From sequence record MN850579.1: a stretch of DNA of 64,000 nucleotides. One strand, 5' to 3'. The stretch is from Escherichia phage mogra. A model generated the notes under the pieces. That model was not told the origin of the DNA. It searched no databases and worked only from the letters and a program-made list of their open reading frames with translations. The translations under genes and the position numbers were made by a program. Every line of letters starts with the position of its first letter. Position 1 is the first letter of the stretch. This document shows, one piece after another, positions 34,665 to 60,881 of the stretch.

Positions 34665-34730
34665 GTTTACATAAGGATGTTGGTGTGATACTATCATCCT
34701 ATCAAATCACAAACCAAACGGAAAAAACAA
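34665..34730 (+). promoter_or_regulatory. Early promoter cassette (PeSL-like)
   Basis: GTTTAC -35, 17-bp spacer, GATACTAT -10 between GGATG/CATCC arms. Confidence 0.65.
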
Positions 34731-35042
34731 ATGAAAACTTATCAAGAGTTTATCGCTGAAGCTACTAAAGCCGATAAAAATTTTATTATTAACACCACCG
34801 GTCCGTTAGATGATGAATACGCTAATGCTATTATTAAGTCAATTTCTAATCAAGGCGTTGAAGTAACAAATTTCGAATATAAGAAAAATGATACTTATAT
34901 GATAATTAGTATCAAAAAAGGTTCAAAAGCCAAAATTAAATCTGCGTTTGGTGTTATGCGAGTTGACCAAATCGATAACCACGATTTTTCACAAACAGGG
35001 GTCAAACGCCAAAATACCATTTCTTCTAAAGGCATAAAATAA
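34731..35042 (+). CDS. ipI: Internal protein (IPI-like) with capsid-targeting sequence
   Basis: N-terminus MKTYQEFIAEA is the T4 capsid-targeting sequence with gp21 L/I-x-E site; next to 57B as in T4. Confidence 0.75.
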   Translation: MKTYQEFIAEATKADKNFIINTTGPLDDEYANAIIKSISNQGVEVTNFEYKKNDTYMIISIKKGSKAKIKSAFGVMRVDQIDNHDFSQTGVKRQNTISSKGIK

Positions 35043-35103
35043 TTTACAACAAGATAGGACTATGTTATAGTAGTCCTATCAAAACAACCAAACGGAACCT
35101 AAA
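35043..35103 (+). promoter_or_regulatory. Early promoter cassette (PeSL)
   Basis: TTTACA -35, 17-bp spacer, TGT-TATAGT -10 in loop of TAGGACTA/TAGTCCTA 8-bp hairpin. Confidence 0.7.
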
Positions 35104-35367
35104 ATGAAAACTTTCAACGAATTCATCTCAGAATCATCTGGTGTGAAAATTAACAAAGCGGTCAATCAGGTTATTGCTGATATTCTTAATTTGTATAACA
35201 TTGACTTAACTCCGCATATCACGCTTGGTAACAAACGAAACTTTTTCATATTTGACACATCTGAACTTGATGAAAATCGGTTCAATAACATTCAACGTTT
35301 TGCGAATGATAAAGGTCTTCGACACGAGCCTGGTGGCTATAAAAAATACGCAATATATTTGAAATAA
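35104..35367 (+). CDS. Capsid-targeted small protein (CTS-bearing), function unknown
   Basis: N-terminus MKTFNEFISES resembles CTS with I-x-E site. Confidence 0.65.
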   Translation: MKTFNEFISESSGVKINKAVNQVIADILNLYNIDLTPHITLGNKRNFFIFDTSELDENRFNNIQRFANDKGLRHEPGGYKKYAIYLK

Positions 35368-35370
35368 AGG

Positions 35371-35437
35371 TATACAAGCCTATAGGGATATGTTATAGTA
35401 GTCCTATCAAAACAAAATGAGTAAATGGAGAAATAAA
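35371..35437 (+). promoter_or_regulatory. Early promoter cassette (degenerate PeSL)
   Basis: TATACA -35-like, 17-bp spacer, TATAGT -10, conserved leader AAAATGAGTAAATGGAGAAATAAAATG. Confidence 0.5.
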
Positions 35438-35623
35438 ATGAAACGCGCTGAACTGATTCGTAATGTTGCTGTAGTAATTGCTTCAATGGCTTTTAGTTTT
35501 TCGATGTTTGTAGGATTCATTTGTGGACTACTGACAACAACAGAAAATTCTATCTCATTGGTAGTAGCATTTCTAATCGGCTTAATCGCTATCGTTATGG
35601 ATAAAATTGCAAAAGGTGAGTAA
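35438..35623 (+). CDS. Small membrane protein (two predicted TM helices)
   Basis: Second ATG chosen (GGAG SD 10 nt upstream); hydrophobic stretches. Confidence 0.6.
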   Translation: MKRAELIRNVAVVIASMAFSFSMFVGFICGLLTTTENSISLVVAFLIGLIAIVMDKIAKGE

Positions 35624-35624
35624 A

Positions 35625-35987
35625 ATGAAATATCATGTATATGCTGATTTTGAAGCAAATCCTTCTAAAGACCCTGATTGTCGTTTGATACGCAGACCAT
35701 TTGATTCAGCAGCCCAAGCATGGGCTTGGATTAAAACTTGTACTCCTTCTTACACTTTCTTTGAAGTGGTAGATGATAACGGTGTTCTGCATCCAGAACC
35801 TACAGAAACTATTAATTTCCTTCTGTTTGCTGGTTATGACTGTTATCCTCTTGGTGGTATTGACGACCTTGTTGCTATAGGAAAAACTGTTGAAGCTCTT
35901 CGCGAAATTTATAAAAACGCGGAAGAAAATTTTGACTGGTATCATATCGTTGATGCTCATACCTTTGAAATGGTGGAACATTCATGA
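35625..35987 (+). CDS. Hypothetical protein
   Basis: ATG after GGTGAG SD; 120 aa ORF. Confidence 0.6.
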   Translation: MKYHVYADFEANPSKDPDCRLIRRPFDSAAQAWAWIKTCTPSYTFFEVVDDNGVLHPEPTETINFLLFAGYDCYPLGGIDDLVAIGKTVEALREIYKNAEENFDWYHIVDAHTFEMVEHS

Positions 35988-36274
35988 TTCTTTATGCTAA
36001 AGTATCGTCCATTGAGAACGGATATGAAAGCGACCAACGAGCAGCTAAAGCGTTAGTTGATGACTATGGTATTCTGACTATCTTTGAGGTTGAAAAGGTT
36101 TATATCGACCGTTCATCTTCACAAGTTAAATTACTCTGTGAAGACGTTAAATTTAACACAGTTAACTTTGATTTCTTTATTGAAACAGAAAAAGGCCCTC
36201 TTGAATATGATATTTTCAAGAACCCTTTGAAATTACGTTGCATTGAATATAACTACATTAATATGGTACGGTAA
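35984..36274 (+). CDS. Hypothetical protein
   Basis: 96 aa ORF, ATGA overlap with upstream gene. Confidence 0.6.
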   Translation: MILYAKVSSIENGYESDQRAAKALVDDYGILTIFEVEKVYIDRSSSQVKLLCEDVKFNTVNFDFFIETEKGPLEYDIFKNPLKLRCIEYNYINMVR

Positions 36275-36370
36275 AACGTAATTTGCTTTAAGAATTATGT
36301 GTTATTATTAATCTACCCTCTATTACCAAAGGTGCTCCCTCAAGTGCCTTTCATAATAGAAAGTTATTTA

Positions 36371-36445
36371 GGCCCTGTAGCTCAATGGGAGAGCTGTCAG
36401 CTCATAACTGATAGGTAGCTGGATCGAAACCAGCCAGGGCCACCA
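36371..36445 (+). tRNA. tRNA with CAU anticodon (Ile2 with lysidine, or Met)
   Basis: Hand-folded cloverleaf: acceptor GGCCCTG/CAGGGCC, D arm GCTC-AATGGGA-GAGC, anticodon loop CTCATAA, T arm GCTGG/CCAGC, encoded CCA. Confidence 0.8.
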
Positions 36446-36545
36446 ATTCGCGGTGAGTACGCTCTTAGGTAGGTAAGTTGTTCGAATAAGGGTTAAAAGT
36501 AGAACCTACAAACGAGTAACCCTGAAACACCCAAAGCCGCATCAT

Positions 36546-36622
<77 letters not shown>

Positions 36623-36640
36623 ACTTCAAGTGAGGAAAAT

Positions 36641-36985
36641 ATGAAAGGCAATATTTATTTGGTAGTTCATGATTTAACGTTTTATTTTAACGAACAGGAT
36701 ACAGTTATTTCCGACCGGTTGATTAATTCGTTATATCAACACGCTGATTACGTTTATTTTAAAAATGAATTAGGACATTGGAAGTTTCTTAAAAACCGTT
36801 CCGGGTTAACTAGTTTTGAATACTTTGACCGTAAAGACCTTTTAAACGAAATTCCATTACAACATCGGTTCCAGAAACGCGAATCACTATACTATTGTCG
36901 CCATATACCAAATGCTGAATGTGTTTATGAAGCGATTAATCTATGGCGTCGACGTCGAGAGCAAATTGATGATATGCCAAAATAA
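36641..36985 (+). CDS. Hypothetical protein
   Basis: ATG after GAGGAAAA SD just 3' of tRNA-Arg; ORF-track start 36593 would overlap the tRNA. Confidence 0.6.
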   Translation: MKGNIYLVVHDLTFYFNEQDTVISDRLINSLYQHADYVYFKNELGHWKFLKNRSGLTSFEYFDRKDLLNEIPLQHRFQKRESLYYCRHIPNAECVYEAINLWRRRREQIDDMPK

Positions 36986-36989
36986 GAAG

Positions 36990-37260
36990 CCGGGTCGCTA
37001 CCGGCAAGTCGTCGGACTGATGTTCCCTGAGTAAGGACTGGTCTTAATAAATCTTTATGTTTTGTTAATATCCCCTTACATCACAGCAGAAACGGCGCAC
37101 CGAATTATCGATTCGAGGAAATATCTTTGCCGTAAGCCGAGTAGCGTTTTTGACGGAACGTTCGGATATGGTCGAGATATGGCCTTTTAAAAATATTGAG
37201 TAGCGTCAACTACTTAATAACCGGGTTCGAGTCCCGGCGTTTCGTACAAACACTTGCCTT
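36990..37260 (+). ncRNA. Candidate structured small stable RNA(s) downstream of the tRNAs
   Basis: About 300 nt with no ORF, several hairpins (GCCGG-TCGCTA-CCGGC; T-arm-like CCGGGTTCGAGTCCCGG), ending in a terminator; T4 has stable RNAs C/D next to its tRNAs. Confidence 0.35.
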
Positions 37261-37267
37261 AGCAGGT

Positions 37268-37297
37268 GGAACCCCGACAAGGTTGGGGCTTTTTTTG
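37268..37297 (+). terminator. Rho-independent terminator
   Basis: AACCCC...GGTTGGGGC hairpin followed by T7. Confidence 0.75.
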
Positions 37298-37340
37298 CAT
37301 AATAATAAATAGATAAGTTAATTAACTTAGGAAAAGCAAC

Positions 37341-37805
37341 ATGAAATCATACGCTGAATTTTTGACTGAACAATCTAGTTCAGATGTAAAAGCCGCTGCG
37401 ATTGCAGCAATTCAAGCAGGTAAATATTCTTACAAAGACGCCTCTGATGAAGAACGTTTCCGTTTTATTAGAGATTTTAAAGCCGAAGGTTTTACTAATG
37501 CTAATACTGTTAGCCGAGTTTTTAAAAGCCTAGCTGCATCAGGTGAATTGTTCCAGAAAGCTACAGGTAAAGCACCTGCACCAAAAGCGGACCCTAAAGC
37601 CGCTCAAGAAAAAAATATCGCCAAAGGAATTATTTCTAAGTATGAAGCAATTCTTAAAGAGCTTTTAGTAATCAAAACAGAAGGCCAGAAACTGGCACGA
37701 GCACATAGCTTCAAAGATAATCCTCACGCTCATAGCCTTGAGTATGTTGAAGATATCCAAAAACTTATTAAAGACCGTATCTGGTCTGCTAAACAAATTA
37801 AATAA
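37341..37805 (+). CDS. Capsid-targeted protein (CTS-bearing), function unknown
   Basis: 154 aa; N-terminus MKSYAEFLTEQ resembles CTS with L-x-E site. Confidence 0.65.
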   Translation: MKSYAEFLTEQSSSDVKAAAIAAIQAGKYSYKDASDEERFRFIRDFKAEGFTNANTVSRVFKSLAASGELFQKATGKAPAPKADPKAAQEKNIAKGIISKYEAILKELLVIKTEGQKLARAHSFKDNPHAHSLEYVEDIQKLIKDRIWSAKQIK

Positions 37806-37811
37806 TAGAAT

Positions 37812-37871: not shown

Positions 37872-37928
37872 GTTTACTTCTTCCCTAGATGTGTTACTAT
37901 AGACCTATCAAAACATGGGGAGAATATT
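37872..37928 (+). promoter_or_regulatory. Early promoter cassette (PeSL-like)
   Basis: GTTTAC -35, GTTACTATAG -10 region, SD GGGGAG. Confidence 0.65.
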
Positions 37929-38432
37929 ATGAGTCTTTACACTGAACTGAATAAAAAATCTGAAGAATCTGCTGAAACTATTTTTAAAAACGTGCAAAAG
38001 CGTATTTTAGAAAAGATGTATAACGCTGCAGCTAAAGGTGAAAAATCTTGCCGGTTTCCGATTAGGTGTTCTTCAGATTTATGCGCAAATACTATTGAAT
38101 GGCTGGAAAGTGAAGGTCTTACGGTAGAGAAAAACCCGGCGACTTCTATTGATAGCGAATCATATATTAGTATTTCTTGGGATAAATCAAGGGTAGAAGA
38201 GAAAGATGGTGATTGGGTTGTAGATGTTAAAACTTCTGATGGTGGACGTTCTGTTGAAGTTTCAGCTGTAGTTAAAGGTACCCACGAACAAAGGACTTGG
38301 GGTTGGGGTGGTGAAGAAAAAGAAATTGTTCTTAGTGTGATTGCCAGGTCAACTAGTAATAAAATTGCACAAAGCATCATTGACGCTGCAATTGCTGAAG
38401 CAGAAAAAATTTGCAAAATTAAAAATAAATGA
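37929..38432 (+). CDS. Hypothetical protein
   Basis: 167 aa ORF after promoter cassette. Confidence 0.65.
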   Translation: MSLYTELNKKSEESAETIFKNVQKRILEKMYNAAAKGEKSCRFPIRCSSDLCANTIEWLESEGLTVEKNPATSIDSESYISISWDKSRVEEKDGDWVVDVKTSDGGRSVEVSAVVKGTHEQRTWGWGGEEKEIVLSVIARSTSNKIAQSIIDAAIAEAEKICKIKNK

Positions 38433-38491
38433 TGTACAAGCACCAAGGATGGTGATACTATAGACTTATCAACTACAGAGGAGTAAACAAA
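38433..38491 (+). promoter_or_regulatory. Early promoter cassette; 46-nt identical to copy at 1613-1658
   Basis: TGTACA -35-like, CACCAAGGATGGTG palindrome, GATACTATAG -10, GAGGAG SD. Confidence 0.65.
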
Positions 38492-38656
38492 ATGACTACT
38501 TTAATTATTTGGTTCGATGAAAATGAAGAAACATACTGTGTGAATATTGGTGAAAGTCCAATGCCTGAATTTGAATCCTCAGATAAAAACTCTGTTGTAT
38601 CTTGGGCTGAAGGTTATAAAGCAGCTAAAGGTGACGTTGAAATAATTTACATCTAA
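38492..38656 (+). CDS. Small hypothetical protein (54 aa)
   Basis: ATG 9 nt after GAGGAG; MTTLIIWFDENEETYCVNIGESP... Confidence 0.5.
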   Translation: MTTLIIWFDENEETYCVNIGESPMPEFESSDKNSVVSWAEGYKAAKGDVEIIYI

Positions 38657-38702
38657 GTAAGTTTATGTTATAGTAGTCCTATCAAATCAAGAGGAAAACA
38701 AA
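38646..38702 (+). promoter_or_regulatory. Early promoter cassette (PeSL)
   Basis: TTTACA -35 inside end of preceding ORF, 17-bp spacer, TATAGT -10, TAGTCCTATCAAA box. Confidence 0.55.
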
Positions 38703-38930
38703 ATGGCTAAAGTTAGTATTGATGTCGTTGATTATGAATACACTGAAGAAGTTATTCGCAACCGTCACCCTGAAGTTCGTATCGATTCAGTCCAAGATTC
38801 CAAGTTCTGGACAACTGAGCTTAATCTGAGTGGTCCTTATGAAGCCGTTAAGAAGTTCATGGTTGAAGAATACTGTGAAGGCATGCACCCGGAAGACGCC
38901 AAGTTTTATGTCAATTTGATTAAAAAATAA
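38703..38930 (+). CDS. Hypothetical protein
   Basis: 75 aa ORF, SD AGAGGAAAA. Confidence 0.6.
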   Translation: MAKVSIDVVDYEYTEEVIRNRHPEVRIDSVQDSKFWTTELNLSGPYEAVKKFMVEEYCEGMHPEDAKFYVNLIKK

Positions 38931-39000
38931 TTTACAAACTCTTGAGAGCAGAGTATAATGCTCTCATTGGATAATAAACCACCAATTGAAAGGTAATAAT
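38931..39000 (+). promoter_or_regulatory. Early promoter in stem-loop
   Basis: TTTACA -35, 17-bp spacer, TATAAT -10 in loop of TGAGAGC/GCTCTCA hairpin. Confidence 0.7.
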
Positions 39001-39594
39001 ATGAACACACTGAAGAAACTTGTTGAATTCATCCGCACTAAACTGGGTACTGCTATGGCTAAAAATCTGACTGTCGAAGAACAGTATAACGCAGCTGCAG
39101 ATAAGTTGATTACCCAAATCAAAGAACTAAAAACGGCTTCTGTTAAATCTATTAATGAAGAAAAACGTATTCGCGAACTTGTTAATGAAAAGAACAAGCA
39201 AGCCGCTTCTAAGGAACTTGAAATTCGTAAGCTCCTGGCTGAAGGACAAGATGTTACTATGCATGCTAAGCTTGGTCTTCTGTATCGTCGAACTGCCGAA
39301 CAACTTAATACAAAAGCTGACGGGTATGCCGCTATGCGAATTGAAATTGCTCGTAAGGTGGTTGAACTTGACGATGCTCGTCAGAACCTGGCAATCAAAC
39401 TCGAATACATTCGTGAAACTCGAGCAGCCAATGCCCTTGGTATCTCTACGGCCGATGATGTAATTGAAATCGCTGCACTGACTAAGGTTGATATCGAAGA
39501 CACTCTGACTCGTGTTGAAACGTTCAATGGCACTCCAGCCGGCGTCGAAACCACTTCTGCTGATGTACAAGAATATATTAACTCTTTGAAATAA
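39001..39594 (+). CDS. Coiled-coil protein with PspA/IM30-like character
   Basis: 197 aa, heptad-rich; loose resemblance to PspA family by eye. Confidence 0.5.
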
Positions 39595-40610: not shown

Positions 40611-40948
40611 CCGTATGGCCTTCTCTTGGTGAGAACATTCTAATTTTTATTATGAGTATTGGCATGGGATTTGCCTTTGGATTAGTTGGATTTCTTATTG
40701 ACGGCGTTGTGTTAGGATTTATAGGGAACACTGGTGGATTCACAGACCAATGGCAGGACTTACGGTATACCCAAGCCTTTGCATCCATCGCATCATTTTG
40801 TACTGTAGTCTATTTTTACTACGATTTTATAAACCATAACAAGAAAAATAAAAAGATTTACGCTTCTCAAATGATTAGTTATAATGAACTTCTAGCTAAA
40901 CGTGAAAATGAAACAATCGAAAACTTTATTAAGGAATGTAGAAAATGA
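40589..40948 (+). CDS. Small membrane protein, C-terminal NFIKECRK
   Basis: 119 aa; TM helices; C-terminal FIKECR motif shared with 43098 and 44091 genes. Confidence 0.65.
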   Translation: MQKPQLLTVWPSLGENILIFIMSIGMGFAFGLVGFLIDGVVLGFIGNTGGFTDQWQDLRYTQAFASIASFCTVVYFYYDFINHNKKNKKIYASQMISYNELLAKRENETIENFIKECRK

Positions 40949-41739: not shown

Positions 41740-41744
41740 AACAG

Positions 41745-41802
41745 TTTACAACAAGATAGGGCTATGTTATAGTAGTCCTATCAAAAACAAATGGAGTCCA
41801 CA
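41745..41802 (+). promoter_or_regulatory. Early promoter cassette (PeSL)
   Basis: TTTACA -35, TATAGT -10 in TAGGGCTA/TAGTCCTA hairpin, leader AAATGGAG. Confidence 0.7.
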
Positions 41803-43027: not shown

Positions 43028-43040
43028 TTTCGCAAAACTG

Positions 43041-43097
43041 TTTACACAATTATAGGACTATGTTATAGTAGTCCTACCAAAACATGAGGAGAATATT
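43041..43097 (+). promoter_or_regulatory. Early promoter cassette (PeSL)
   Basis: TTTACA -35, TATAGT -10 in TAGGACTA/TAGTCCTA hairpin. Confidence 0.7.
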
Positions 43098-43403
43098 ATG
43101 AAATTAGGCGAAACCAACCGAATTGGTCTTTTAACAATATTTGCATCACTTTTTTACGCAACTCTTTCTGTTGCAGTATTACAAAAGGCTTACAGTATGG
43201 ATGGTGTGCCTGGTTGTATATTCTTATCACCGTTTTTATTATTCGTCGGAGCTTTGTTATTATATGCCACGACTAGTTTCGACCATAATGTCTGGGTCAA
43301 TTATAAACGTAAATTGACCGAAGAAGAACACGCAGAAGCTCGTAAAAAAGCTATTGAATCTACCAATCTAGAAAATTTCATTAAAGAATGTCGAGGAAAA
43401 TAA
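43098..43403 (+). CDS. Small membrane protein, C-terminal NFIKECRGK
   Basis: 101 aa; two TM helices; FIKECR C-terminal motif. Confidence 0.65.
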   Translation: MKLGETNRIGLLTIFASLFYATLSVAVLQKAYSMDGVPGCIFLSPFLLFVGALLLYATTSFDHNVWVNYKRKLTEEEHAEARKKAIESTNLENFIKECRGK

Positions 43404-44582: not shown

Positions 44583-44815
44583 GTATAGCAATTTACATTA
44601 AATCAGAATCATGTGATAGTTATCTGTACACATACGATAAAGATGTGTCAGAAGAAAAAATCAAAGACGATCTTAATATGGACCTTGATATGTTCTGTCC
44701 TATTGCAGATTACAAACTTGCGGTCTCTAATAGTGAAAGTCCATCTAAAGAAACGCGCATCGAAGAATTTATGTCCGAATTAATGGCCAAATCATGGGAC
44801 CGAGATGATGAGTAA
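44579..44815 (+). CDS. Hypothetical acidic protein
   Basis: 78 aa; ATGA overlap with upstream gene. Confidence 0.55.
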   Translation: MSIAIYIKSESCDSYLYTYDKDVSEEKIKDDLNMDLDMFCPIADYKLAVSNSESPSKETRIEEFMSELMAKSWDRDDE

Positions 44816-46065: not shown

Positions 46066-46122
46066 GTTTACTTCCTCCAAGGACTTTGATACTATACATC
46101 TATCAACTACTTGGAGGAAATT
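46066..46122 (+). promoter_or_regulatory. Early promoter cassette (PeSL-like)
   Basis: GTTTAC -35, GATACTATAC -10 between TTCCTCCAAG/CTTGGAGGAA arms. Confidence 0.65.
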
Positions 46123-46536
46123 ATGACTCGTATCAATTTGACACTTGTTTCTGAACTGACCGACCAACATCTTATGGCTGAGTATCGTGAATTACCACGC
46201 GTATTTGGTGCAGTCCGTAAACATGTTCAAAACGGTAAACGTGTAAAGGATTTTAAAATCTCTCCAACATTTATCTTAGGCACAGGTCACGTAACATTCT
46301 TTTACGACAAACTCGAATTTTTACGTTTACGACAAATCGAGCTAATCGCTGAATGCTTGAAACGTGGTTTCAAAATCAAGGACACGACAGTCCAGGATAT
46401 TTCCGACATCCCTGCCGAATTTCGTAATAATTATGTCCCGTCTGAAGCGTCCATTGCGATAAGTCAAGCACGCTTAGATGAAAAAATTGCTCAACGTCCG
46501 ACTTGGTACAAATACTATGGTAAATCAATTTACTAA
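46123..46536 (+). CDS. denV: Endonuclease V (pyrimidine dimer DNA glycosylase)
   Basis: 137 aa; [34 protein letters not shown]... near-identical to T4 DenV. Confidence 0.96.
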
Positions 46537-46805: not shown

Positions 46806-46866
46806 GGTTTACGCTTAAGTATTAATATGGTATAATTACTCTATCAAAACAAACAAGGAAACAAAA
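46806..46866 (+). promoter_or_regulatory. Early promoter
   Basis: GTTTAC -35, TGGTATAAT extended -10, CTATCAAAAC box. Confidence 0.65.
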
Positions 46867-47445
46867 ATGAAAACGTATAAAGAATTTATCGCCGAGGCCT
46901 TTGCAGGAAAAGCTCAAGGCATTAATAAGGACGAGTGGAATTATCGTGGCGGAAACGGCTTTGACCCTAAAACTGCTCCACTTGAACGATATCTGGCCAC
47001 AAAAGCTTCTGATTTTAAAGCCTTCGCTTGGGAAGGACTACGCTGGCGTAACGATCTAAATATTGAAGTTGACGGACTTAAATTTGCTCATATTGAAGAT
47101 GTTGTTGCTAGTAACTTAGACGCAGCTTTTGTTAAAGCCGACAGTGACCTTCGTCGCTGGAATTTAAAACTGTTCTCTAAACAAAAAGGCCCGAAGTTTG
47201 TGCCTAAAGCAGGTAAATGGGTCATTGATAATAAATTAGCTAAAGCTGTCAACTACGCCGGTCTTGAATTTGCCAAGCATAAATCATCATGGAAAGGTCT
47301 TGATGCAATGGCTTTCCGTAAAGAATTTGCCGATGTTATGGCTAAAGGCGGCTTTAAGGCAGAAATAGATACAACTAAGGGCACGTTTAAAGACGCTAAT
47401 GTTCAGTACGCTTACGCCGTTGCTAATGCAGCCCGTAATTCCTAA
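46867..47445 (+). CDS. Internal protein (IPIII-like size) with capsid-targeting sequence
   Basis: 192 aa; N-terminus MKTYKEFIAEA; size close to T4 IPIII. Confidence 0.7.
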   Translation: MKTYKEFIAEAFAGKAQGINKDEWNYRGGNGFDPKTAPLERYLATKASDFKAFAWEGLRWRNDLNIEVDGLKFAHIEDVVASNLDAAFVKADSDLRRWNLKLFSKQKGPKFVPKAGKWVIDNKLAKAVNYAGLEFAKHKSSWKGLDAMAFRKEFADVMAKGGFKAEIDTTKGTFKDANVQYAYAVANAARNS

Positions 47446-47486
47446 TAAAGCTAATACTCAGACCTATTTACATTTAAAGGAAACAT

Positions 47487-47789
47487 ATGAAAACATATCA
47501 AGAATTTATTACTGAAGCGCGAGTGAGTGCAGGTAAATTAGAAGCCGCTATAAATAAAAAGGCCCATTCATTTCATGATTTGTCCGATAAAGACCGTAAG
47601 AAACTTGTAAGCCTTTATATTGACAAAGAGCGTATTCTCGCTCTTCCTGGCGCTAATGAAGGTAAACAGGCCAAGCCTTTGAATGCTGTCGAAAAGAAAA
47701 TTGATAACTTTGCTTCTAAATTCGGTATGTCTATGGATGACCTTCAGCAAGCGGCTATCGAAGCAGCTAAAGTAATTAAAGGTAAATAA
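47487..47789 (+). CDS. Internal protein (IPII-like size) with capsid-targeting sequence
   Basis: 100 aa; N-terminus MKTYQEFITEA. Confidence 0.7.
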   Translation: MKTYQEFITEARVSAGKLEAAINKKAHSFHDLSDKDRKKLVSLYIDKERILALPGANEGKQAKPLNAVEKKIDNFASKFGMSMDDLQQAAIEAAKVIKGK

Positions 47790-47791
47790 CA

Positions 47792-47853
47792 GTTTACTTT
47801 CTCCTAGAATTGTGATAGTATATTCATAATTACTTGGAGGGGTAAATACAGAA
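47792..47853 (+). promoter_or_regulatory. Early promoter cassette (PeSL-like)
   Basis: GTTTAC -35, GATAGTAT -10 region, TCTCC/GGAGG arms. Confidence 0.55.
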
Positions 47854-47902
47854 ATGGACAATTCATGCGCCACGGAATGGCCCAACCTAAAAGAGAAACT
47901 AA

Positions 47903-49596: not shown

Positions 49597-49895
49597 TGGC
49601 TCAAATCCTATCAGGCTTTGGAACTCATTATGAAGCATCTAGACGCATAACTGAAAGCAATCCTTTTGGCCTTGTTCCGAAGCACAAGAAAATTCAAAGC
49701 CTTGATGACTTTGAGAACCGCCTATGGGCCCTCTTTAATGAGTACAAGGCATATCTGAAAGAAGACGCTGACTATTGTCTTGAAGAAGATGAGATTGCGT
49801 ATTACGAACAACGCCTTGAACAGCTCAAGAACTTCCGTCAGGTTCGTGACGAAGTATCTAAAGCAGTTAAAAAGTTAATTCCTTTCAAAGAGTAG
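49596..49895 (+). CDS. Hypothetical protein
   Basis: 99 aa; ATGG overlap. Confidence 0.6.
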
Positions 49896-49951
49896 TTTAC
49901 TTCTCCTCTAGTTGTGTTACTATAGACTTGTCAACTAGAGGAGAAATCAAA
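49895..49951 (+). promoter_or_regulatory. Early promoter cassette (PeSL-like) for regB
   Basis: GTTTAC -35, GTTACTATAG -10 in loop of TTCTCCTCTAGTTG/CAACTAGAGGAGAA hairpin that also contains the SD. Confidence 0.7.
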
Positions 49952-50410
49952 ATGACTATCAATTCGGAAGTTTTTATCCGCCGTAATAAACTCCGTCGAA
50001 TCTTTGAAACGGAGTTCCGCAAAATAAATGCCGGTATAAAAGATGCTGCAAAGTCTCTTGGACTACCAGGCTTTCATATCAAGTATTCTCAACATCTCTT
50101 AGATCGTGCCATCCAGAGAGAAATAGATGAGAATTACGTTTTTGAATTATTTCATAAAGTAAAAAATCATGTTAAAGAAGTTGCAGAATTTTTATCAATG
50201 CCGGCACGTCCGGATGTTGATGAAGATTTTGTCGAAGGTGTCGAATATCGCCCAGGCCGTTTAGAAATAACTGATGGAAATCTTTGGTTAGGACTTACAG
50301 TTTGTCGCGAAAATCCAGCATTCAAAATGAAGACTCTTCAATGCAGAATGGCTATTATTAACAGTAAACGACTACCAGGAAAAGCTTCTAAAGCAGTGAT
50401 TAAAATCTAG
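49952..50410 (+). CDS. regB: RegB endoribonuclease
   Basis: 152 aa; MTINSEVFIRRNKLRR...LQCRMAIINSKRLPGKASKAVIK close to T4 RegB. Confidence 0.93.
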   Translation: MTINSEVFIRRNKLRRIFETEFRKINAGIKDAAKSLGLPGFHIKYSQHLLDRAIQREIDENYVFELFHKVKNHVKEVAEFLSMPARPDVDEDFVEGVEYRPGRLEITDGNLWLGLTVCRENPAFKMKTLQCRMAIINSKRLPGKASKAVIKI

Positions 50411-52365: not shown

Positions 52366-52947
52366 ATGGCTAGTTTAATTTTTACCTATGCCGCTATGAA
52401 CGCTGGTAAGTCTGCTTCATTACTTACTGCCGCACATAACTATAAAGAACGTGGCATGGGTGTATTAGTTCTTAAACCGGCTATTGATACTCGCGATTCA
52501 AAAGGTGAAATAGTCTCTCGTATTGGTATTCGTCAGGACGCCAATATAATTACAAAAGACATGGATATCTTTGAATTCTATAAATGGGCTGCAGCACAAA
52601 AGGATATTCACTGCGTATTTGTTGACGAAGCTCAGTTCTTAACTACTGAAAAGGTGTATCAACTTAGTCGTATTGTTGACGTATACAATGTGCCGGTAAT
52701 GGCATATGGACTACGAACAGATTTTAAAGGTAATCTATTTGAAGGTTCTCAAGCATTAATGGCTATTGCCGATAAGCTTGTTGAACTTAAAGGGGTCTGT
52801 CATTGCGGTAAAAAGGCCACAATGGTAGCTAGAGTCACGGAAGACGGACTTCCAATTACAGATGGCAGTCAAATTGAAATTGGTGATACTGATAGATATG
52901 TGTCATTATGCCGGAAGCATTGGAACGATTTGACAGGGTTGTTATAA
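52366..52947 (+). CDS. tk: Thymidine kinase
   Basis: 193 aa; P-loop MNAGKSASL, C-terminal Zn ribbon CHCGKKA...LCRKHW; T4 Tk-like. Confidence 0.93.
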   Translation: MASLIFTYAAMNAGKSASLLTAAHNYKERGMGVLVLKPAIDTRDSKGEIVSRIGIRQDANIITKDMDIFEFYKWAAAQKDIHCVFVDEAQFLTTEKVYQLSRIVDVYNVPVMAYGLRTDFKGNLFEGSQALMAIADKLVELKGVCHCGKKATMVARVTEDGLPITDGSQIEIGDTDRYVSLCRKHWNDLTGLL

Positions 52948-52974
52948 ATACTAATATCTAACCAAGAGGTATAT

Positions 52975-53187
52975 ATGCAGCAATTAAACGAAAGACAACT
53001 TCGTAATCTTACTGTAACCCAATTGGATGAAATCCGAAGAGAATTAGGACATTCTATTTCTCATTTAAACGAGGATATCCGTCAAACTGGTTCTAAAGCT
53101 GATTATACACGCAAGCGCAAGCTGGAAAAATACCTCGCAGATGTTAAGGCCGTCCAAAGGCGAAAAATAAATACTGGCCAAAATTAA
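52975..53187 (+). CDS. Hypothetical protein (rI.1 position)
   Basis: 70 aa between tk and rI. Confidence 0.6.
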
Positions 53188-53508: not shown

Positions 53509-53536
53509 AGCCCCTTCCGAAAGGTCGGGGCTTTTT
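53509..53536 (+). terminator. Rho-independent terminator after rI
   Basis: AGCCCC...GGGGCT hairpin + T5. Confidence 0.7.
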
Positions 53537-53547: not shown

Positions 53548-53603
53548 GTTTACTTCTCCTCAGGTTGTGTTATAGTAAACCTTACTTACTAGAGGAGAAC
53601 GTT
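53548..53603 (+). promoter_or_regulatory. Early promoter cassette (PeSL-like)
   Basis: GTTTAC -35, TATAGT -10, TTCTCCTC/GAGGAGAA arms. Confidence 0.65.
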
Positions 53604-53783
53604 ATGTCACGTAAAGAAAAAATTTCTAAGTTAATGTTTTTGATTGAAGAGTACGCTAATGCGGTATCTGATTGGGAAAATGCTCATGGTTGCGAAGATG
53701 GAGACATCGACATTAACAGAGCTATGAAAAAGATGGCCGACGCCCACACCGAATTGCAAATGTATGTTAACGAGATTATGTGA
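53604..53783 (+). CDS. Hypothetical protein
   Basis: 59 aa; ATG after GAGGAGAA SD. Confidence 0.5.
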   Translation: MSRKEKISKLMFLIEEYANAVSDWENAHGCEDGDIDINRAMKKMADAHTELQMYVNEIM

Positions 53784-53790: not shown

Positions 53791-54000
53791 ATGCTTTACG
53801 ATTATACTGGAAAATCTGAAGACGGTGTACTTGAACTTTTACCTGAAAGCGCTGAAGATGACGATATGGCGACGGTGATGTTTTGTAAAAATGGTCCCGG
53901 GGATAAGGGATGGATTTATCTTCGCCAAGAAAATGACCTAATTGTTTTAGACCCTAAACAAGTTGAAGAACTTTATCAACATTTAAAACACAATCGGTAG
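53791..54000 (+). CDS. Hypothetical protein
   Basis: 69 aa; GAGGA SD. Confidence 0.5.
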   Translation: MLYDYTGKSEDGVLELLPESAEDDDMATVMFCKNGPGDKGWIYLRQENDLIVLDPKQVEELYQHLKHNR

Positions 54001-54057
54001 TTTACATCTTGGTAGGACTATGTTATAGTAGTCCTATCAAAACGAACGGAGAACAAA
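54001..54057 (+). promoter_or_regulatory. Early promoter cassette (PeSL)
   Basis: TTTACA -35, 17-bp spacer, TATAGT -10 in TAGGACTA/TAGTCCTA hairpin. Confidence 0.7.
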
Positions 54058-54168
54058 ATGAAACTTTTGCTTATCGCTTATGTTGTAGTACAATACAATT
54101 ATCCGATGTTTACTTATAACATGGTAAACGGCATAGTGAATCTTATTGAAACGAGTATGGTAAAATGA
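54058..54168 (+). CDS. Small hydrophobic peptide (36 aa)
   Basis: MKLLLIAYVVVQYNYPMF...; below ORF-track cutoff. Confidence 0.4.
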   Translation: MKLLLIAYVVVQYNYPMFTYNMVNGIVNLIETSMVK

Positions 54169-56663: not shown

Positions 56664-56683
56664 GGGACCTTCGGGTCCCTTTA
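56664..56683 (+). terminator. Terminator-like hairpin
   Basis: GGGACC-TTCG-GGTCCC followed by TTTAGGG (weak T-run). Confidence 0.5.
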
Positions 56684-56710
56684 GGGGGTTAAAATATTTT
56701 TAAAAAGTAG

Positions 56711-56776
56711 TGTACATGCTTTTAGGATATGTTATTATAGACCTATCGAAACGAAATGAGTAAATTGGAGAATAAA
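56711..56776 (+). promoter_or_regulatory. Early promoter cassette (PeSL-like)
   Basis: TGTACA -35-like, 17-bp spacer, TATTAT -10, leader AAATGAGTAAATTGGAGAATAAAATG. Confidence 0.6.
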
Positions 56777-57757
56777 ATGTTCAACGTTCAAATCAAAAAA
56801 GGTATCTATCGTAATAACGAAATCTCTGGTTCTTATGTTGCCACAAAGACCTGGTTCCCGGCAAAGCTTAATCCTGAATGTTCCCACTTAGGTGATGGTA
56901 AAATTTTCGTTATGATTGATGGTTCTGAACGTGGAGTATGGGTCTTCAAATCAGACATCGTAATGGAAGGAGTTGAGACGTCACCAGTTGCAGTTATTGA
57001 AAGCACTGAAGATATGAAAACTCGTATCAACAAACGCTTTAAAGTAATGAACATGATGACGAATGGCATTATCGATGGCAAAATTCGTTCACTCATTATT
57101 TCAGGTGCAGCTGGTATTGGTAAGACGTATTCTCTGGATAAAGCACTTAATAATGCTAATGATAACGGTTTCATCAAATACAAAAGCATTAATGGTAAAA
57201 TCTCCGGTATTGGCCTTTACGAACAACTTTGGCTCAACCGTGATGCAGACAGCGTTCTCTTAATCGACGACGTTGACGTATTCTCAGATATGGACATCTT
57301 GAACCTTCTTAAAGCAGCATTAGATACCGGCGATAAACGCAAAGTTTGTTGGAGCACTGCGTCATCTTATCTCGAGGATAAGGGTATTGATAAAGAATTT
57401 GAGTTTGAAGGTACTATCGTTTTCATTACAAACGTTGATATCGATAAAGAGTTAGAACGGGGTTCGAAACTTGCTCCACACCTTCAAGCTTTAGTATCTC
57501 GTTCAGTGTATCTCGACCTTGGAGTACACTCTAATGAAGAGATTATGGTTCGAGTTGAAGATGTAATATTATCTACTGACATGATGCAGAAACGTGGCCT
57601 GACGGATGCAGAAACGTACAAAGCATTGTCCTGGATGAAGGCTAATGTATCTCGTCTTCGCAATGTATCATTACGTACCGCTCTTTATGTAGCAGATTTT
57701 ATTTCAACTGATAAAGATGGTTGGGAGGAAATCTCTGAAGTAACTTTACTGAAATAA
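56777..57757 (+). CDS. AAA+ family ATPase
   Basis: About 326 aa from second ATG; Walker A ISGAAGIGKT, Walker B VLLIDDVD, sensor-1-like IVFITN. Confidence 0.7.
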   Translation: MFNVQIKKGIYRNNEISGSYVATKTWFPAKLNPECSHLGDGKIFVMIDGSERGVWVFKSDIVMEGVETSPVAVIESTEDMKTRINKRFKVMNMMTNGIIDGKIRSLIISGAAGIGKTYSLDKALNNANDNGFIKYKSINGKISGIGLYEQLWLNRDADSVLLIDDVDVFSDMDILNLLKAALDTGDKRKVCWSTASSYLEDKGIDKEFEFEGTIVFITNVDIDKELERGSKLAPHLQALVSRSVYLDLGVHSNEEIMVRVEDVILSTDMMQKRGLTDAETYKALSWMKANVSRLRNVSLRTALYVADFISTDKDGWEEISEVTLLK

Positions 57758-57773
57758 GCTTATAGGAAGTTCT

Positions 57774-57823
57774 GAGGTAACAAAAGCCATAAAGATGAAT
57801 AATCATATGGCTTACCTCAAAGA
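57774..57823 (+). other. Bipartite stem-loop downstream of the ATPase gene
   Basis: GAGGTAA...GCCAT / ATGGC-TTACCTC nested inverted repeat, no T-run. Confidence 0.4.
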
Positions 57824-57894
57824 AGGACACCAGGAACCTACTGAGGGCATAGAAATATTTAAAATAATGATGTACAAATCAAAGAGGATATGTT

Positions 57895-58182
57895 ATGGAT
57901 TTTATGCAAAAAATTAAAGCCGCAGTCGAACTGTATGCTCATCGTATGGTTAGTTCTACGATGCAATATAGCGAGGAGGTTCGCCAGGACTCTTCCTTGA
58001 AAGGAAAAACTAAAGCCTTAATTACCTTAGATCGTTTGCAAAAGAATGCCATAGAGATGCTCCAGTACGACAAGGGTGTATATAAGAAAGAACAGGAAGA
58101 GAAACTTAAATCTGAAAAATTACAAAAAATCCCGAAGTCTGTTTGGTTCAGTGGAAAAAATACCGAAAAAAGTTTCTTTTAG
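57895..58182 (+). CDS. Hypothetical protein
   Basis: 95 aa. Confidence 0.55.
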   Translation: MDFMQKIKAAVELYAHRMVSSTMQYSEEVRQDSSLKGKTKALITLDRLQKNAIEMLQYDKGVYKKEQEEKLKSEKLQKIPKSVWFSGKNTEKSFF

Positions 58183-58184
58183 TT

Positions 58185-58240
58185 GTTTACAAGGTCTATG
58201 GTTATGTTATTATAGACCTATCAACTACTGGAGGTAAAAC
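58185..58240 (+). promoter_or_regulatory. Early promoter cassette (PeSL-like)
   Basis: GTTTAC -35, 17-bp spacer, TATTAT -10 in loop of AGGTCTAT/ATAGACCT hairpin. Confidence 0.7.
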
Positions 58241-58768
58241 ATGAACGCTAAAGATATTTTCAACCTGGTAAATTATAACGACGGTAAATTTAAATCTGAA
58301 GCACAAAGTAAGTTCTTTAATGACATTGCTTATGGTAACGAGATTACCGTGGACGGAGGTCAGATTTTCAAATCTCGCTGGAATTGGATTGTTATCATCG
58401 ATTCAGTTGGAATTGTGGAAGTCTACAAAAACACTAACAAAAAACGTACATTATTCTGGTCTCGTGAAACTAACGAGAAGTACAAAAAGGATAAAGCATC
58501 TCGTTTATCCAAAGTAACCCAGGAAGATATCGAGTTTATCAAGAAAGATATCGAGATGTACGAAAATTTAATCGCTGAAGACCAGGCAGTACTCGATAAG
58601 TTTGATGAAATTAAAGCTTCTCTTGAAATCCCTGACTTCATGAAAGAAACAGTAAACGAACGATACGCTCTCACTTCAGAACGTATTGCAAACTATACAA
58701 AACAGAAAGCAGAACGTATTAGTACTCTTCGGAAATTTGAAGAACGTTTAAAGACGGTTCACGCATAA
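58241..58768 (+). CDS. Hypothetical protein
   Basis: 175 aa; SD TGGAGGT. Confidence 0.65.
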   Translation: MNAKDIFNLVNYNDGKFKSEAQSKFFNDIAYGNEITVDGGQIFKSRWNWIVIIDSVGIVEVYKNTNKKRTLFWSRETNEKYKKDKASRLSKVTQEDIEFIKKDIEMYENLIAEDQAVLDKFDEIKASLEIPDFMKETVNERYALTSERIANYTKQKAERISTLRKFEERLKTVHA

Positions 58769-58830
58769 ACGCTTTACCCAAGGACGGGTTATAATGGTTT
58801 TGAGTTCCAATTCAATCTGAGGAAATAGTT

Positions 58831-59826
58831 ATGAGCATTACATCTGATGCGGTAAAACATGAAATTAATGGTTTATGTGCTTCACAGATTAAAGTGTGGT
58901 TTAAAGACCATAACGATCGCAGAGCACTTAATTATGAGCAAATTGCTATCCAAGTTCATCAATTACTGGTTAGTAAATTTGATTTTCATATGCCGTCTGA
59001 AATCTATACTAATCTGCCGCGAGCACTTATTAAAGCGTGTAAAGGTTATGGAAAATCAATGGCTGATGGAATCTTCAGCGCGCTGAATAAACTTAACGTT
59101 CTGTCGATGATTAACTCTAACAACATCCTGAGTAATCTAGGACGTACTGATTTGTTCGGACGTGAACAGTGTAAAATGCCTTTGAAATGGATTGTTGCTC
59201 ATCTTAACGAGAACCAAACACGTTTTATGGCCGTAACAGCACGTTTACAAATGGGCCTAGATCGTCAGATGAACTTTAAAACTCATCCACGTTATTCAGG
59301 TTCAACTGACTTTTATAAATGTGAGCTTCAAAAGGTTGGTGGCAAAACTGTCTTAGTAGTTCGTGTAACGTTTGAAGGACGTCGTCAAGGATATTTTGAC
59401 ATAATCGGCTCTGGACTTAAACATTGTGGATTTATCGACGAAGTTGATATCAAGCGAGACGGCATTGGATACCGTATTGGGTATGTTTGTACTCTTAAAG
59501 AAGAGATTTCAGGACCAGCTCCAGGACTAAAAGACGTTAGATATAAAGACGAGCTCGTTGAAGAAATAAAAGAAGTTGAATATGATATCAACCAAGAAGA
59601 TGCTCTTAAAGACCTTATTGATGAACTGAACCAAGACGTTATTCCGGTTCAGAAATTTGAATCAAAACATGCTGAGCAAATCAAATACTTTGAAGCTTTG
59701 ATTAACGAACTTAATGTAACTATTCAACAGACTGACGATGAAATCTCACGATTAGCAGGCTTAAACGGTAAAAATAAAACAGAACGAGCTAATCTTATTC
59801 AAGTAGTAAAACTTCTTAAGGAATGA
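58831..59826 (+). CDS. Hypothetical protein with C-terminal coiled coil
   Basis: 331 aa. Confidence 0.65.
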   Translation: MSITSDAVKHEINGLCASQIKVWFKDHNDRRALNYEQIAIQVHQLLVSKFDFHMPSEIYTNLPRALIKACKGYGKSMADGIFSALNKLNVLSMINSNNILSNLGRTDLFGREQCKMPLKWIVAHLNENQTRFMAVTARLQMGLDRQMNFKTHPRYSGSTDFYKCELQKVGGKTVLVVRVTFEGRRQGYFDIIGSGLKHCGFIDEVDIKRDGIGYRIGYVCTLKEEISGPAPGLKDVRYKDELVEEIKEVEYDINQEDALKDLIDELNQDVIPVQKFESKHAEQIKYFEALINELNVTIQQTDDEISRLAGLNGKNKTERANLIQVVKLLKE

Positions 59827-59881
59827 TGTACAACCAAGGATGGTTGGAGTATAATAAATTTTTCAACATGAGGAATATAAA
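59827..59881 (+). promoter_or_regulatory. Early promoter cassette (CAACCAAGGATGGTTGG type)
   Basis: TGTACA -35-like, 17-bp spacer, TATAAT -10; upstream core shared with 60822 copy. Confidence 0.65.
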
Positions 59882-60817
59882 ATGGCTTTTATTACACGTA
59901 GAGAACTTATCAAAGAATTTACCTCGAACGCATATACTCCAGGACCTAATCCTATCCGTATGCCTGTAAAGACTCCTGAAGAGATTGAGGAAGTCTGTTC
60001 ATATTATGGGATTACTTCTCGTAAGTTTACTCAATTTGAATGCGTTACTAACACACCCGTTAAAGAGTTCATTAAAAATGGTGAGTTCAGCCGTTTATTA
60101 GCCAAACAGAAACTTCGTAATTTTTGTATTGGTGGTGAAGGACAATATTTCGCTAAGCAGTTCCGGAATAACCTTAACAATCTGATGGCCATTGCTTCTC
60201 GTATTCGTCCTCAAGCAATTAACATGAAACATTTGAAATATACTTACGATAAGTTAGAAATCATGGTTATCAGTGAGAATGAGTTCACTCTTACGTATAA
60301 ACCTAAGAATGATAACGTTGCTCGTGTATTCCACCAAGCGTTGGAAGTTTTAGGTGATAATATCCACCAGATTAAAGCAATTTATTCTCGTGAGCTTAAT
60401 ATTATCGACCCTATCAAGAATAAGGGCCATATCGCTATCCAGGCTCGTGTATCTATTGGTAAAAAGGTTCCTGCGCCATGGTGGCACAAAGACTCTGAAT
60501 ACTATCAAAATCTTAAAAAGGAAAATGCAACGTTCGAAGCGTCAATTACTGCAACCCCAATTGGCCATGCTGAAGTTCTAGGTGCATATTCTACTGCTCC
60601 ATCTATACACATTTCACCGTCGACTAAACTGGAAATCTCTAACGGTCTTCTTCCTGCCGAAGATTACCATTATAATCAAATCAAGGCCACTGTAGACCAA
60701 CTATCCGTTGAACTTGACAAAGCACAAGCTAAGCTTCGTGATGCTCAACAAGTAGTTACCAAGCTCCAGTTGCAGTACTCTAAACTTTTTAACGCAATGA
60801 ATGCATTAAAATCATAA
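59882..60817 (+). CDS. Hypothetical protein with C-terminal coiled coil
   Basis: 311 aa. Confidence 0.65.
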   Translation: MAFITRRELIKEFTSNAYTPGPNPIRMPVKTPEEIEEVCSYYGITSRKFTQFECVTNTPVKEFIKNGEFSRLLAKQKLRNFCIGGEGQYFAKQFRNNLNNLMAIASRIRPQAINMKHLKYTYDKLEIMVISENEFTLTYKPKNDNVARVFHQALEVLGDNIHQIKAIYSRELNIIDPIKNKGHIAIQARVSIGKKVPAPWWHKDSEYYQNLKKENATFEASITATPIGHAEVLGAYSTAPSIHISPSTKLEISNGLLPAEDYHYNQIKATVDQLSVELDKAQAKLRDAQQVVTKLQLQYSKLFNAMNALKS

Positions 60818-60821
60818 ATCA

Positions 60822-60881
60822 GTTTACAACCAAGGATGGTTGGAGTATAATGAGAACCTATCTTAACGAGAGGAAAATATT
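60822..60881 (+). promoter_or_regulatory. Early promoter cassette (CAACCAAGGATGGTTGG type)
   Basis: GTTTAC -35, TATAAT -10; promoter core duplicated from 59827 copy. Confidence 0.7.

Follow-up and report, generated by a model that had tools for sequence, protein, structure and literature searches.

In Escherichia phage mogra (MN850579.1) a unit of about 50 bp recurs between positions 34665 and 60881 of the 64,000-nucleotide (nt) stretch analysed here (the window). The initial annotation took the copies for cassettes of the promoter early stem-loop (PeSL) type and gave most of them a perfect inverted repeat around the -10 element. What are these units, and what do their inverted repeats do? 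Here we describe the units as T4-type early promoters and their repeats as two distinct kinds of potential helix. The overall explanation, to which we give a probability of roughly 70%, is that the unit is an early promoter cassette, that about half of the copies encode a helix arm present only in read-through RNA, that the two classes of helix have different roles, and that the units also serve as homology patches.

A repeated unit with the anatomy of an early promoter

The 10 kb around the units are 95-98% identical to the RB69-like coliphages pEB20, AV118, Shf125875 and phiE142, and on this similarity the window belongs to an RB69-like Mosigvirus. T4 itself is only 66-94% identical to the window, whose orientation is the reverse of that in the T4 reference. 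The - strand carries late genes, gene 5 and beyond, as far as about 31 kb. On the + strand are the early genes, which extend from gene 4/2/3/1/57 through the internal-protein, tRNA, e, denV, regB, tk and nrdC blocks.

Scanning with a two-block position matrix returned 24 matches of at least 14 bits, all of them on the + strand, where Markov shuffles yield 0.3; the - strand has none. The matrix had been built from twenty of the 24. Independent of this training are the extra matches at 36281, 38432, 44591, 59826 and 63210, the strand asymmetry, and the behaviour of a reduced matrix that ignores the arm positions. The latter was run on 41 related loci (T4, RB69, phage KAW3E185 and 38 viral contigs anchored on two conserved genes) and gives 333 matches on the + strand and 7 on the - strand. 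Within 34665-60881 there are 22 units, which agrees with the "about twenty" first counted; further copies lie at 1593, 61804 and 63210, the last being weak and doubtful. The repeat originally quoted, TAGGACTA-N8-TAGTCCTA, is indeed found without mismatch at 35055, 43053 and 54013 and in nearly the same form at 35383 and 41757 (5 matches with up to two mismatches, 0.02 expected). A repeat finder groups 4-8 copies into several overlapping families that span the -35, the -10, the start box and the Shine-Dalgarno (SD) sequence.

All the promoter parts originally listed (a GTTTAC-type -35, spacer, -10, CCTATCAA box and SD) are present. Good copies have GTTTAC or ATTTAC as the -35, a spacer of 17 or 18 nt (16-17 in TTTACA numbering), usually a TGn, a TAnnnT -10 and a CCTATCAA(A/C) box. 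The matrix matches as a group show the GTTTAC(A/T) and TAnnnT consensus of T4-type early promoters. The TGn extension is found in 20 of the 25 units, and an SD with ATG follows 26-38 nt past the -10 in 19. The 24 nt 5' of the -35 form an A/T-rich, UP-like tract (46-88% A+T; at least 70% in 18 of 25 units). All 24 matches are co-oriented with the early genes, and the genes that they head include denV, regB, nrdC.x and internal proteins, as named by homology with T4 and RB69. A generic sigma-70 scan of the sequence found no surplus of promoter-like sites (75 vs 63; 53 vs 53), hence the signal is specific to the T4-type consensus.

Promoters are not annotated in the T4 RefSeq record, and the units were compared with the published consensus rather than with annotated T4 promoters. 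They match the T4/RB69 early consensus, including C at -3 to -1 (PMC1524935, PMC2988021), the C having been noted for RB69 by Nolan et al. 2006 (PMC1524935). By the same consensus the predicted start site is the A of CCTATC, 7 nt past the -10. On this sequence evidence the units are T4-type sigma-70 early promoters followed by an SD and ATG. The start box, (A/C)(G/C)(A/T)CCTATCAA(A/C)(A/T)AC at positions -6 to +10, is conserved between RB69-like phages and T4, and early mRNAs would begin AUCAAAAC or AUCAACUAC.

In RB69, 57 early promoters have been predicted, including some 5' of novel open reading frames (ORFs) and tRNA genes (Nolan et al. 2006, PMC1524935). The units share with the T4 and RB69 early promoters (Hinton 2010, PMC2988021; PMC1524935) the GTTTAC, TGn, -10, A/T tracts, C-rich -3 to -1, location and orientation. 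Both papers treat the promoter as a linear consensus, however, and PMC1524935 does not once use the terms "hairpin", "stem-loop" or "inverted repeat". The original definition of PeSLs, in RB49/phi1, has stems that lie between the promoter boxes or overlap them (Arbiol et al. 2010, PMC2839356), and the type was extended to T4/PST and KVP40/nt-1, with the T4/PST consensus TTTACW-N17-TAYWAT and AGNA-loop-TCNT stems (Comeau et al. 2014, PMC4122927). The window copies match this consensus and these stems. Like PeSLs, the window units combine an A/T-rich tract, a sigma-70-type early promoter, a stem-loop between or overlapping the boxes, an SD and an ATG. They are also clustered in hyperplastic regions 5' of small ORFs and linked to indels or replacements between close relatives.

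The differences are that the host genome is an RB69-like Mosigvirus, outside the coverage of PMC2839356 and PMC4122927; that the window stems are A/T-richer than the GGGG...CCCC type of RB49 and have no U-tract; and that only about a third of the units have a compact stem. A stem-loop between or overlapping the boxes, or just 5' of the start, is found in 7-8 of 25 units, weakly in three units with a spacer-internal repeat, and not in about ten plain promoters. A subset of units thus shows all the sequence-level features that define PeSLs, and the PeSL label given at the outset was right in these features and in the T4/PST consensus. As elements the units are of a known kind, already published as PeSLs, and only the genus is new. 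No curated RNA family in Rfam matches the units, and only two tRNAs were returned.

Compact hairpins and spacer-SD helices

Most copies had been credited with a perfect inverted repeat of 7-14 bp. Inverted repeats of some kind are found in about half of them (7-8 of one class, 5 of another); the rest fold like shuffles. The quoted range of 7-14 bp evidently lumped two classes. Perfect Watson-Crick repeats of at least 7 bp tightly enclosing the -10, in a 36-nt segment centred on it, are present in only 5 of 25 units (3-5% by chance). What had been missed is that the repeats are of two kinds and that the wide ones, by their sequence, pair with the SD.

Class I is a compact hairpin in which the spacer pairs with the discriminator and the -10 is enclosed. 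The 5' arm lies in the spacer, TGnTATA in the loop, and the 3' arm runs from the -10 end to about +1 to +5. It is found in 7-8 of the 25 units, and seven have stable hairpins (RNA energy of -11 kcal/mol or lower). Against dinucleotide shuffles these seven have z scores of -2.1 to -6.2, while plain units range from -0.8 to +0.7. The unit at 34665-34733 pairs AGGATG (34674-34679) with CATCCT (34695-34700) at -11.1 kcal/mol (z -2.07). It heads an internal-protein-like gene with the leader MKTYQEFIAEA, and its RB69 ortholog has a longer stem. The unit at 35042-35106 heads a second internal-protein-like gene; its arms are GATAGGACTA (35053-35062) and TAGTCCTATC (35071-35080), with TGTTATAG in the 8-nt loop (-16.6 kcal/mol, z -6.21). 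At 38930-39003, upstream of an e.6-like gene, TGAGAGCA (38943-38950) pairs with TGCTCTCA (38959-38966; -13.8 kcal/mol, z -4.00). Two stems contain one G.U each, namely GATAGGGCTA (41755-41764) with TAGTCCTATC (41773-41782) in unit 41744-41793 (-16.0 kcal/mol, z -6.24) and TTGGTAGGACTA (54009-54020) with TAGTCCTATCAA (54029-54040) in unit 54000-54060 (-18.0 kcal/mol, z -5.02). The arms of unit 43040-43100 are TAGGACTA (43053-43060) and TAGTCCTA (43069-43076; -11.7 kcal/mol, z -2.72), and those of the nrdC.8 unit, 58185-58243, are AGGTCTAT (58192-58199) and ATAGACCT (58212-58219; -13.4 kcal/mol, z -2.45). The seven stems are four unrelated sequences with one geometry. A decayed class I stem, TAGGGATA with TAGTCCTA (one G.U and one mismatch; -5.6 kcal/mol, z -0.43), is found in the unit at 35370-35440, which has GTATAC as its -35 and heads a tRNA.4-like ORF.

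The related loci repeat this pattern. Of 250 distinct units, 86 have class I, compared with 7% of arm-swapped chimeras, which combine the spacer half of one unit with the downstream half of another. The class occurs in 37 of 107 sequence families, again with many unrelated stems (GGGACTA/TAGTCCC, GTAGGAG/CTCCTAC, GCAGATGTGT/ACACATCTGC, GACAAGATTA/TAATCTTGTC and others) in a single geometry. Compensatory double changes occur among orthologs of unit 38930 (TGAGAGCA/TGCTCTCA vs TGGGACCA/TGGTCCCA; also CGAGAGA/TCTCTCG) and in another ortholog family (TTGTGCAG/CTGCACAA vs TTGCGCAG/CTGCGCAA). For the modal 10-pair stem in 107 unselected family representatives, 51.1% of cells are paired, against 47.4% when shuffled (0 of 500 shuffles reach the observed value) and 34-41% when slid; the covariation score is 0.224, against 0.186 and 0.10-0.13, respectively. 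The effect is modest because only a third of the units carry the stem and its axis is not uniform. Judged by the chimera, covariation and shuffle controls, the hairpins are selected.

Class II was revealed by longer folds. A pyrimidine run directly 3' of GTTTAC (TTCTCCTC and similar) pairs over 7-14 bp with the downstream SD, 17-31 nt away, which places the -10 in the loop, and in all five window units the 3' arm takes in the SD, with 7-14 contiguous pairs over GGAG/GAGG. In the regB unit (49895-49954) TTCTCCTCTAGTTG (49901-49914) pairs with CAACTAGAGGAGAA (49932-49945), which contains the SD (-15.3 kcal/mol, z -2.79), and in the denV unit (46066-46125) the spacer sequence TTCCTCCAAG (46072-46081) pairs with the SD-containing CTTGGAGGAA (46110-46119). 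The unit at 47792-47856 has its spacer-SD helix, TTTCTCC (47798-47804) with GGAGGGG (47836-47842), nested around an inner stem (-12.9 kcal/mol, z -3.05). The remaining two are 37872-37931, where TTCTTCCC (37878-37885) pairs with the SD at GGGGAGAA (37917-37924), and 53548-53606, where TTCTCCTC (53554-53561) pairs with GAGGAGAA (53592-53599).

Among the related loci 46 of 277 units have at least 8 contiguous pairs that include the SD (3.4% of chimeras), and 14 of 107 families have class II. The classes are nearly exclusive, with both found in only 3 of 288 units. RNAalifold on ten orthologs of the regB promoter recovers the spacer-SD helix, and 6 of its 10 pairs are changed on both sides; MAFFT misaligned the SD region of this set, which makes these pair counts conservative. 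At the nrdC.8 promoter the window has class I and T4 has class II (GTTCCTCTG/CGGAGGAAC). At denV promoters the SD is occluded by three different pairings, either spacer-SD with differing arms or, in other phages, discriminator-SD. In the latter the discriminator pairs over 8-12 bp with the SD and AUG (e.g. ATGATGTCTTCC/GGAGGACATCAT), as in the denV promoters of other phages at L007 14986, L012 14345, L014 12552, L017 13896 and L021 14188. By its sequence this pairing is a third route to occlusion specific to read-through RNA. A search for it as a class of its own (class III) found it to be rare, in 8 of 282 units and none in the window.

The three units with a spacer-internal repeat share a spacer (38438-38453, 59832-59849 and 60828-60845; CACCAAGGATGGTG, AACCAAGGATGGTTGG). 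Folding alone gives the repeat no significance, but RB69 and one other locus have it too, and it may form a third stem class, akin to the commonest RB49 type.

The 2010 review by Uzan and Miller (PMC3014915) names helices that occlude the SD only at e, soc, 49, I-TevI and certain homing endonucleases, and in each case the promoter is a late one. There, as in class II, the 5' arm of the helix covering the SD lies upstream of the start of an internal promoter. Long transcripts of those genes are silent and internal ones translatable, and the same is predicted for class II. In the known cases, however, the promoter is a late one (TATAAATA) and the purpose is temporal delay. Class II has an early sigma-70 promoter, its 5' arm lies in the -35/-10 spacer, the genes include regB and denV, and the function is predicted only. 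In its predicted logic class II works like the e/soc/49/I-TevI family and is not a strict member because the internal promoter is not late. Spacer-SD helices and a translational role are absent from both PeSL papers (the word "translation" does not appear in PMC2839356). Neither the PeSL papers nor the 2010 review were found to describe the class II logic for early promoters, and the older T4 literature may hold an earlier description.

Read-through RNA and the competing explanations

A transition in a perfect stem yields G.T or A.C equally often. Among the internal mismatches of class I stems, read on the + strand, G.T outnumbers A.C by 27 to 4, or by 16 to 4 when each family and position is counted once. 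The excess suggests, as moderate evidence, that pairing matters on the sense strand only, whether in RNA or in single-stranded DNA, and not in a cruciform. The sense fold is also more stable than the antisense fold in 31 of 37 families. In both classes the 5' arm lies upstream of the unit's own transcript, so that by this geometry the helices could exist only in read-through RNA; for class II the arm is in the -35/-10 spacer and would be excluded from any transcript starting past the -10, given the predicted start site. For both classes the excess over arm-swapped controls, the covariation and the preference for the sense strand point to RNA structures specific to read-through transcripts.

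The following mechanism is proposed. The unit consists of an A/T-rich tract, GTTTAC, a spacer of 17 or 18 nt, a TGn-extended -10, the CCTATCAA box with +1 at A, and a leader of 20-30 nt with SD and ATG, and by homology with mapped T4 promoters the host sigma-70 RNA polymerase would fire it immediately after infection. In about half of the copies the only free sequence 5' of the start site would encode a helix 5' arm. Transcripts from the unit's own promoter would lack this arm, and the helix would form only in RNA from an upstream promoter. The class I helix, a compact hairpin of 8-13 bp that ends at about +1 to +5, with TGnTATA in its loop and no U-tract, would most likely be an intercistronic decay barrier, a 3' protector or an attenuator of the upstream message. 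With class II, the downstream gene would be translated, and exposed to RegB, only from transcripts of its own promoter; this is the logic of T4 e, soc, 49 and I-TevI with an early promoter instead. The shared sequence of about 50 bp would also provide homology patches for cassette exchange.

The hairpin had been suggested as a terminator or processing site for the upstream transcript, and the view that such stem-loops are terminators or attenuators isolating each cassette from upstream polymerase is that of the PeSL authors. Class I stems do lie directly 3' of the upstream stop codon, the sense-strand bias fits an RNA role, and an RB49 PeSL stem-loop placed 5' of lacZ lowered expression about as much as rrnB T1 (PMC2839356). 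However, the stem tested there is of the GGGG...CCCC type, unlike those of the window, where the sequence 3' of class I stems is A-rich (0-3 T in 8 nt, no U-tract) and a terminator scan calls no class I stem on the + strand. Canonical GC hairpins with T-runs exist separately, at 37272-37288, 39603, 53515-53530 and 56674-56690. Two of these are just upstream of units, the GC hairpin with T-run at 53515-53530 being just 5' of unit 53548 and the terminator-like hairpin at 56674-56690 lying 5' of unit 56710. Class II, moreover, is sensible only if read-through RNA exists. We regard the terminator explanation as unlikely: from their sequence the class I stems would hardly be classical intrinsic terminators, and an attenuator or an exonuclease barrier is possible. 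On the - strand the 35053-35080 hairpin was called terminator-like, because the complement of the -35/UP region is T-rich. An antisense terminator was rejected, units 54000 and 58185 lacking such a tail and both the mismatch spectrum and the energies favouring the sense strand.

The repeats could instead act in DNA, as cruciforms or single-strand hairpins that attract a nuclease or recombinase (e.g. endonuclease VII) and make recombination hot spots. Breakpoints, defined as the alignment ends in megablast comparisons of 33-64 kb with twelve related loci (42 distinct ends), fall within unit spans in 17 cases, in 8.1% of the sequence, and elsewhere in the other 25. This enrichment fits a role in DNA, as does the mapping of one crossover in an RB49 mini-circle to within the loop (PMC2839356), and the PeSL authors speculated on a DNA-binding protein. 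A cruciform, however, needs both strands paired, and the mismatches, mostly G.T on the sense strand (16 against 4), turn into A.C on its complement; the greater stability of the sense strand is a further point against it. The class II arms, 17-31 nt apart, are poorly placed for cruciform extrusion. Breakpoints also occur at units 46807, 49895 and 56710, cited as repeat-free, such that plain homology suffices. A role in DNA is improbable on this evidence. Still less credible is a palindromic operator at which a dimeric phage protein would shut early promoters after 2-3 minutes. The repeat overlaps the -10, and the mechanism of early-promoter shut-off has been described as not completely understood (PMC3014915), yet the arms vary freely (TAGGACTA, AGGATG, TGAGAGCA, AGGTCTAT and dozens more in relatives) and only their complementarity is conserved, which implies structure and not sequence recognition. 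Two thirds of the promoters have no -10-centred repeat, and G.T pairs are tolerated. The operator was rejected for the free variation of its arms. The remaining alternative, that the repeats are functionless, having arisen as palindromes by chance in A/T-rich promoters and spread as one cassette was duplicated, has in its favour the clear relatedness of five window copies, which have the TAGGACTA/TAGTCCTA arms in common, and the lack of a repeat in half of the units. Against this, the window has four class I stems of unrelated sequence, and the phages compared have 37 families with such stems. It is largely refuted by the chimera controls and by the compensatory changes within ortholog families, and we give it hardly any weight.

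Several points weigh against the proposed read-through helices. The G.T excess is partly expected from the composition of the arms (66 vs 24 in chimeras), and the energy gap between sense and antisense could partly reflect nearest-neighbour asymmetry. Since half of the units are without structure, a role for the structure would be an optional one. Only the consensus places the start site, read-through transcription is assumed from the tandem arrangement, and the class I role is deduced indirectly; the lacZ result cited above keeps attenuation possible. As for the homology patches, the breakpoints are BLAST alignment ends and not mapped crossovers.

Exchange at the units and their wider meaning

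Units were originally held to mark the recombination boundaries of nearly every accessory gene. The enrichment of breakpoints bears this out in part; "nearly every" does not hold, as 48 of 67 gene starts have no unit. With gene starts as a stricter null, a breakpoint is nearby at 11 of 19 starts with a unit and at 12 of 48 without (odds ratio 4.1, p 0.02). The enrichment in these alignments is real, though most gene starts have no unit and most breakpoints are elsewhere. The comparison of cassette linkage across relatives, also called for at the outset, yields two indels flanked by duplicated units in addition to the breakpoint-rich starts. They are an additional cassette of 255 bp in RB69, at unit 56710, and one of 263 bp in KAW3E185, at unit 43040.

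Between relatives, replacement has affected the internal-protein genes at 34731, 35104 and 46867-47789, with boundaries in the unit or about 22 nt into the MKTYQEFIAEA leader, and unit 46807 is the left boundary of a segment replaced relative to both RB69 and KAW3E185. The ipIII/ipII-like pair (46855-47822) is 89-94% identical to T4 in surroundings of 70-80% identity, a contrast suggesting that the pair was recently acquired from a T4-like lineage, in a transfer delimited by units 46807 and 47792. Six genes (34731, 35104, 45783, 46543, 46867 and 47487) start with an internal-protein leader, a capsid-targeting sequence like MKTYQEFIAEA. The DNA of this leader is a repeat family of its own and provides replacement boundaries with a second patch of homology.

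An exact 47-nt match joins positions 1613-1659 to 38452-38498, running from the -10 to the third codon in cassettes 37 kb apart that are unrelated on both sides. It is likely to be a gene-conversion or recombination footprint inside the unit, as indirect evidence that units exchange sequence, and it matches the crossover zone in RB49 mini-circles (PMC2839356). The two units concerned are 1593-1655 (40.0 bits), without a hairpin, and 38432-38494 (30.1 bits), which has a weak -35, ATGTAC, and the small spacer-internal repeat CACCA/TGGTG. The former lies between late genes 24 and 23 and heads a small + strand ORF; in relatives the context is capsid vertex protein, hypothetical protein and major capsid protein. 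The stretch 1593-1960 thus holds, between capsid genes, an early-type cassette, the small ORF and a bidirectional-looking terminator (1930-1952). The frame of the ORF seems broken after about 38 codons (stop at 1768), and it may be split or frameshifted.

The other units are on the + strand as well. Those without a hairpin are at 38645-38705 (44.5 bits, z +0.51), upstream of a frd.3-like ORF; at 40856-40947 (17.1 bits, z -0.09), within the 3' end of the upstream ORF; at 46807-46869 (31.3 bits, z -0.06), upstream of an ipIII-like gene with the leader MKTYKEFIAEA; and at 61804-61864 (22.6 bits), which is outside 34665-60881 and overlaps the end of the upstream gene. The nrdC.10 unit, 56710-56779 (40.3 bits, z +0.51), has no significant hairpin. 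Unit 59826-59884 (20.7 bits, z -0.59) has the spacer-internal repeat AACCA/TGGTT and heads nrdC.5, and 60822-60884, which heads nrdC.3, has the spacer AACCAAGGATGGTTGGAG in common with it. A weak unit at 36281-36330 (17.2 bits) is about 60 nt 5' of tRNA-Met and tRNA-Arg (36371 and 36546) and is a likely tRNA promoter by its position. Two matches are doubtful. One, at 44591-44640 (14.2 bits), is inside a coding region, has GATAGT as its -10, and no SD or ATG was found for it. The other, at 63210-63260 (27.5 bits), is intragenic, with the nearest plausible start 49 nt past the -10 and no A/T-rich sequence upstream.

Two further candidates were not counted. The copy at 57869 (ATGTAC...TATGGA; 57864-57897) retains a -35, ATGTAC, and the spacer, has lost a usable -10 and runs into a nrdC.9-like ATG. 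It is a decayed half-unit, of a kind described by Comeau 2014 (PMC4122927), and coincides with a breakpoint relative to RB69. The repeat-family member at 52936-52960 carries the late-promoter consensus TATAAATA 5' of a 70-aa ORF at 52975 and is not an early unit; its repeat family otherwise consists of early units.

The units themselves are a rediscovery of T4-type early promoters and of the published PeSL concept in one more phage genus, which matters little. What is added is that support for the stem-loops now comes from covariation over more than 100 promoter families and not from inspection alone, and that the sense-strand bias and the missing U-tract speak for a role in RNA that is not classical termination. 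With class II, early genes such as regB and denV would use the trick well known from the late genes e, soc, 49 and I-TevI. More tentatively, at somewhat less than even odds, the spacer of T4-like early promoters may act in about half of the families as a sensor of transcript origin, with one class hiding the next SD (regB, denV, nrdC.8 and others). If this is true, the cassettes would be autonomous in translation as well as in transcription, which would help to explain their free shuffling. The regB gene has a typical early promoter, RegB cuts its own GGAG, and structure protects GGAG from RegB (PMC3014915). The same model would help to explain the RegB resistance of many GGAG sites in longer transcripts. 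If confirmed, class II would tie promoter architecture to RegB sensitivity, to the shut-off of early protein synthesis and to the portability of accessory cassettes, and would be relevant to the insertion or relocation of genes in T4-like therapeutic phages.

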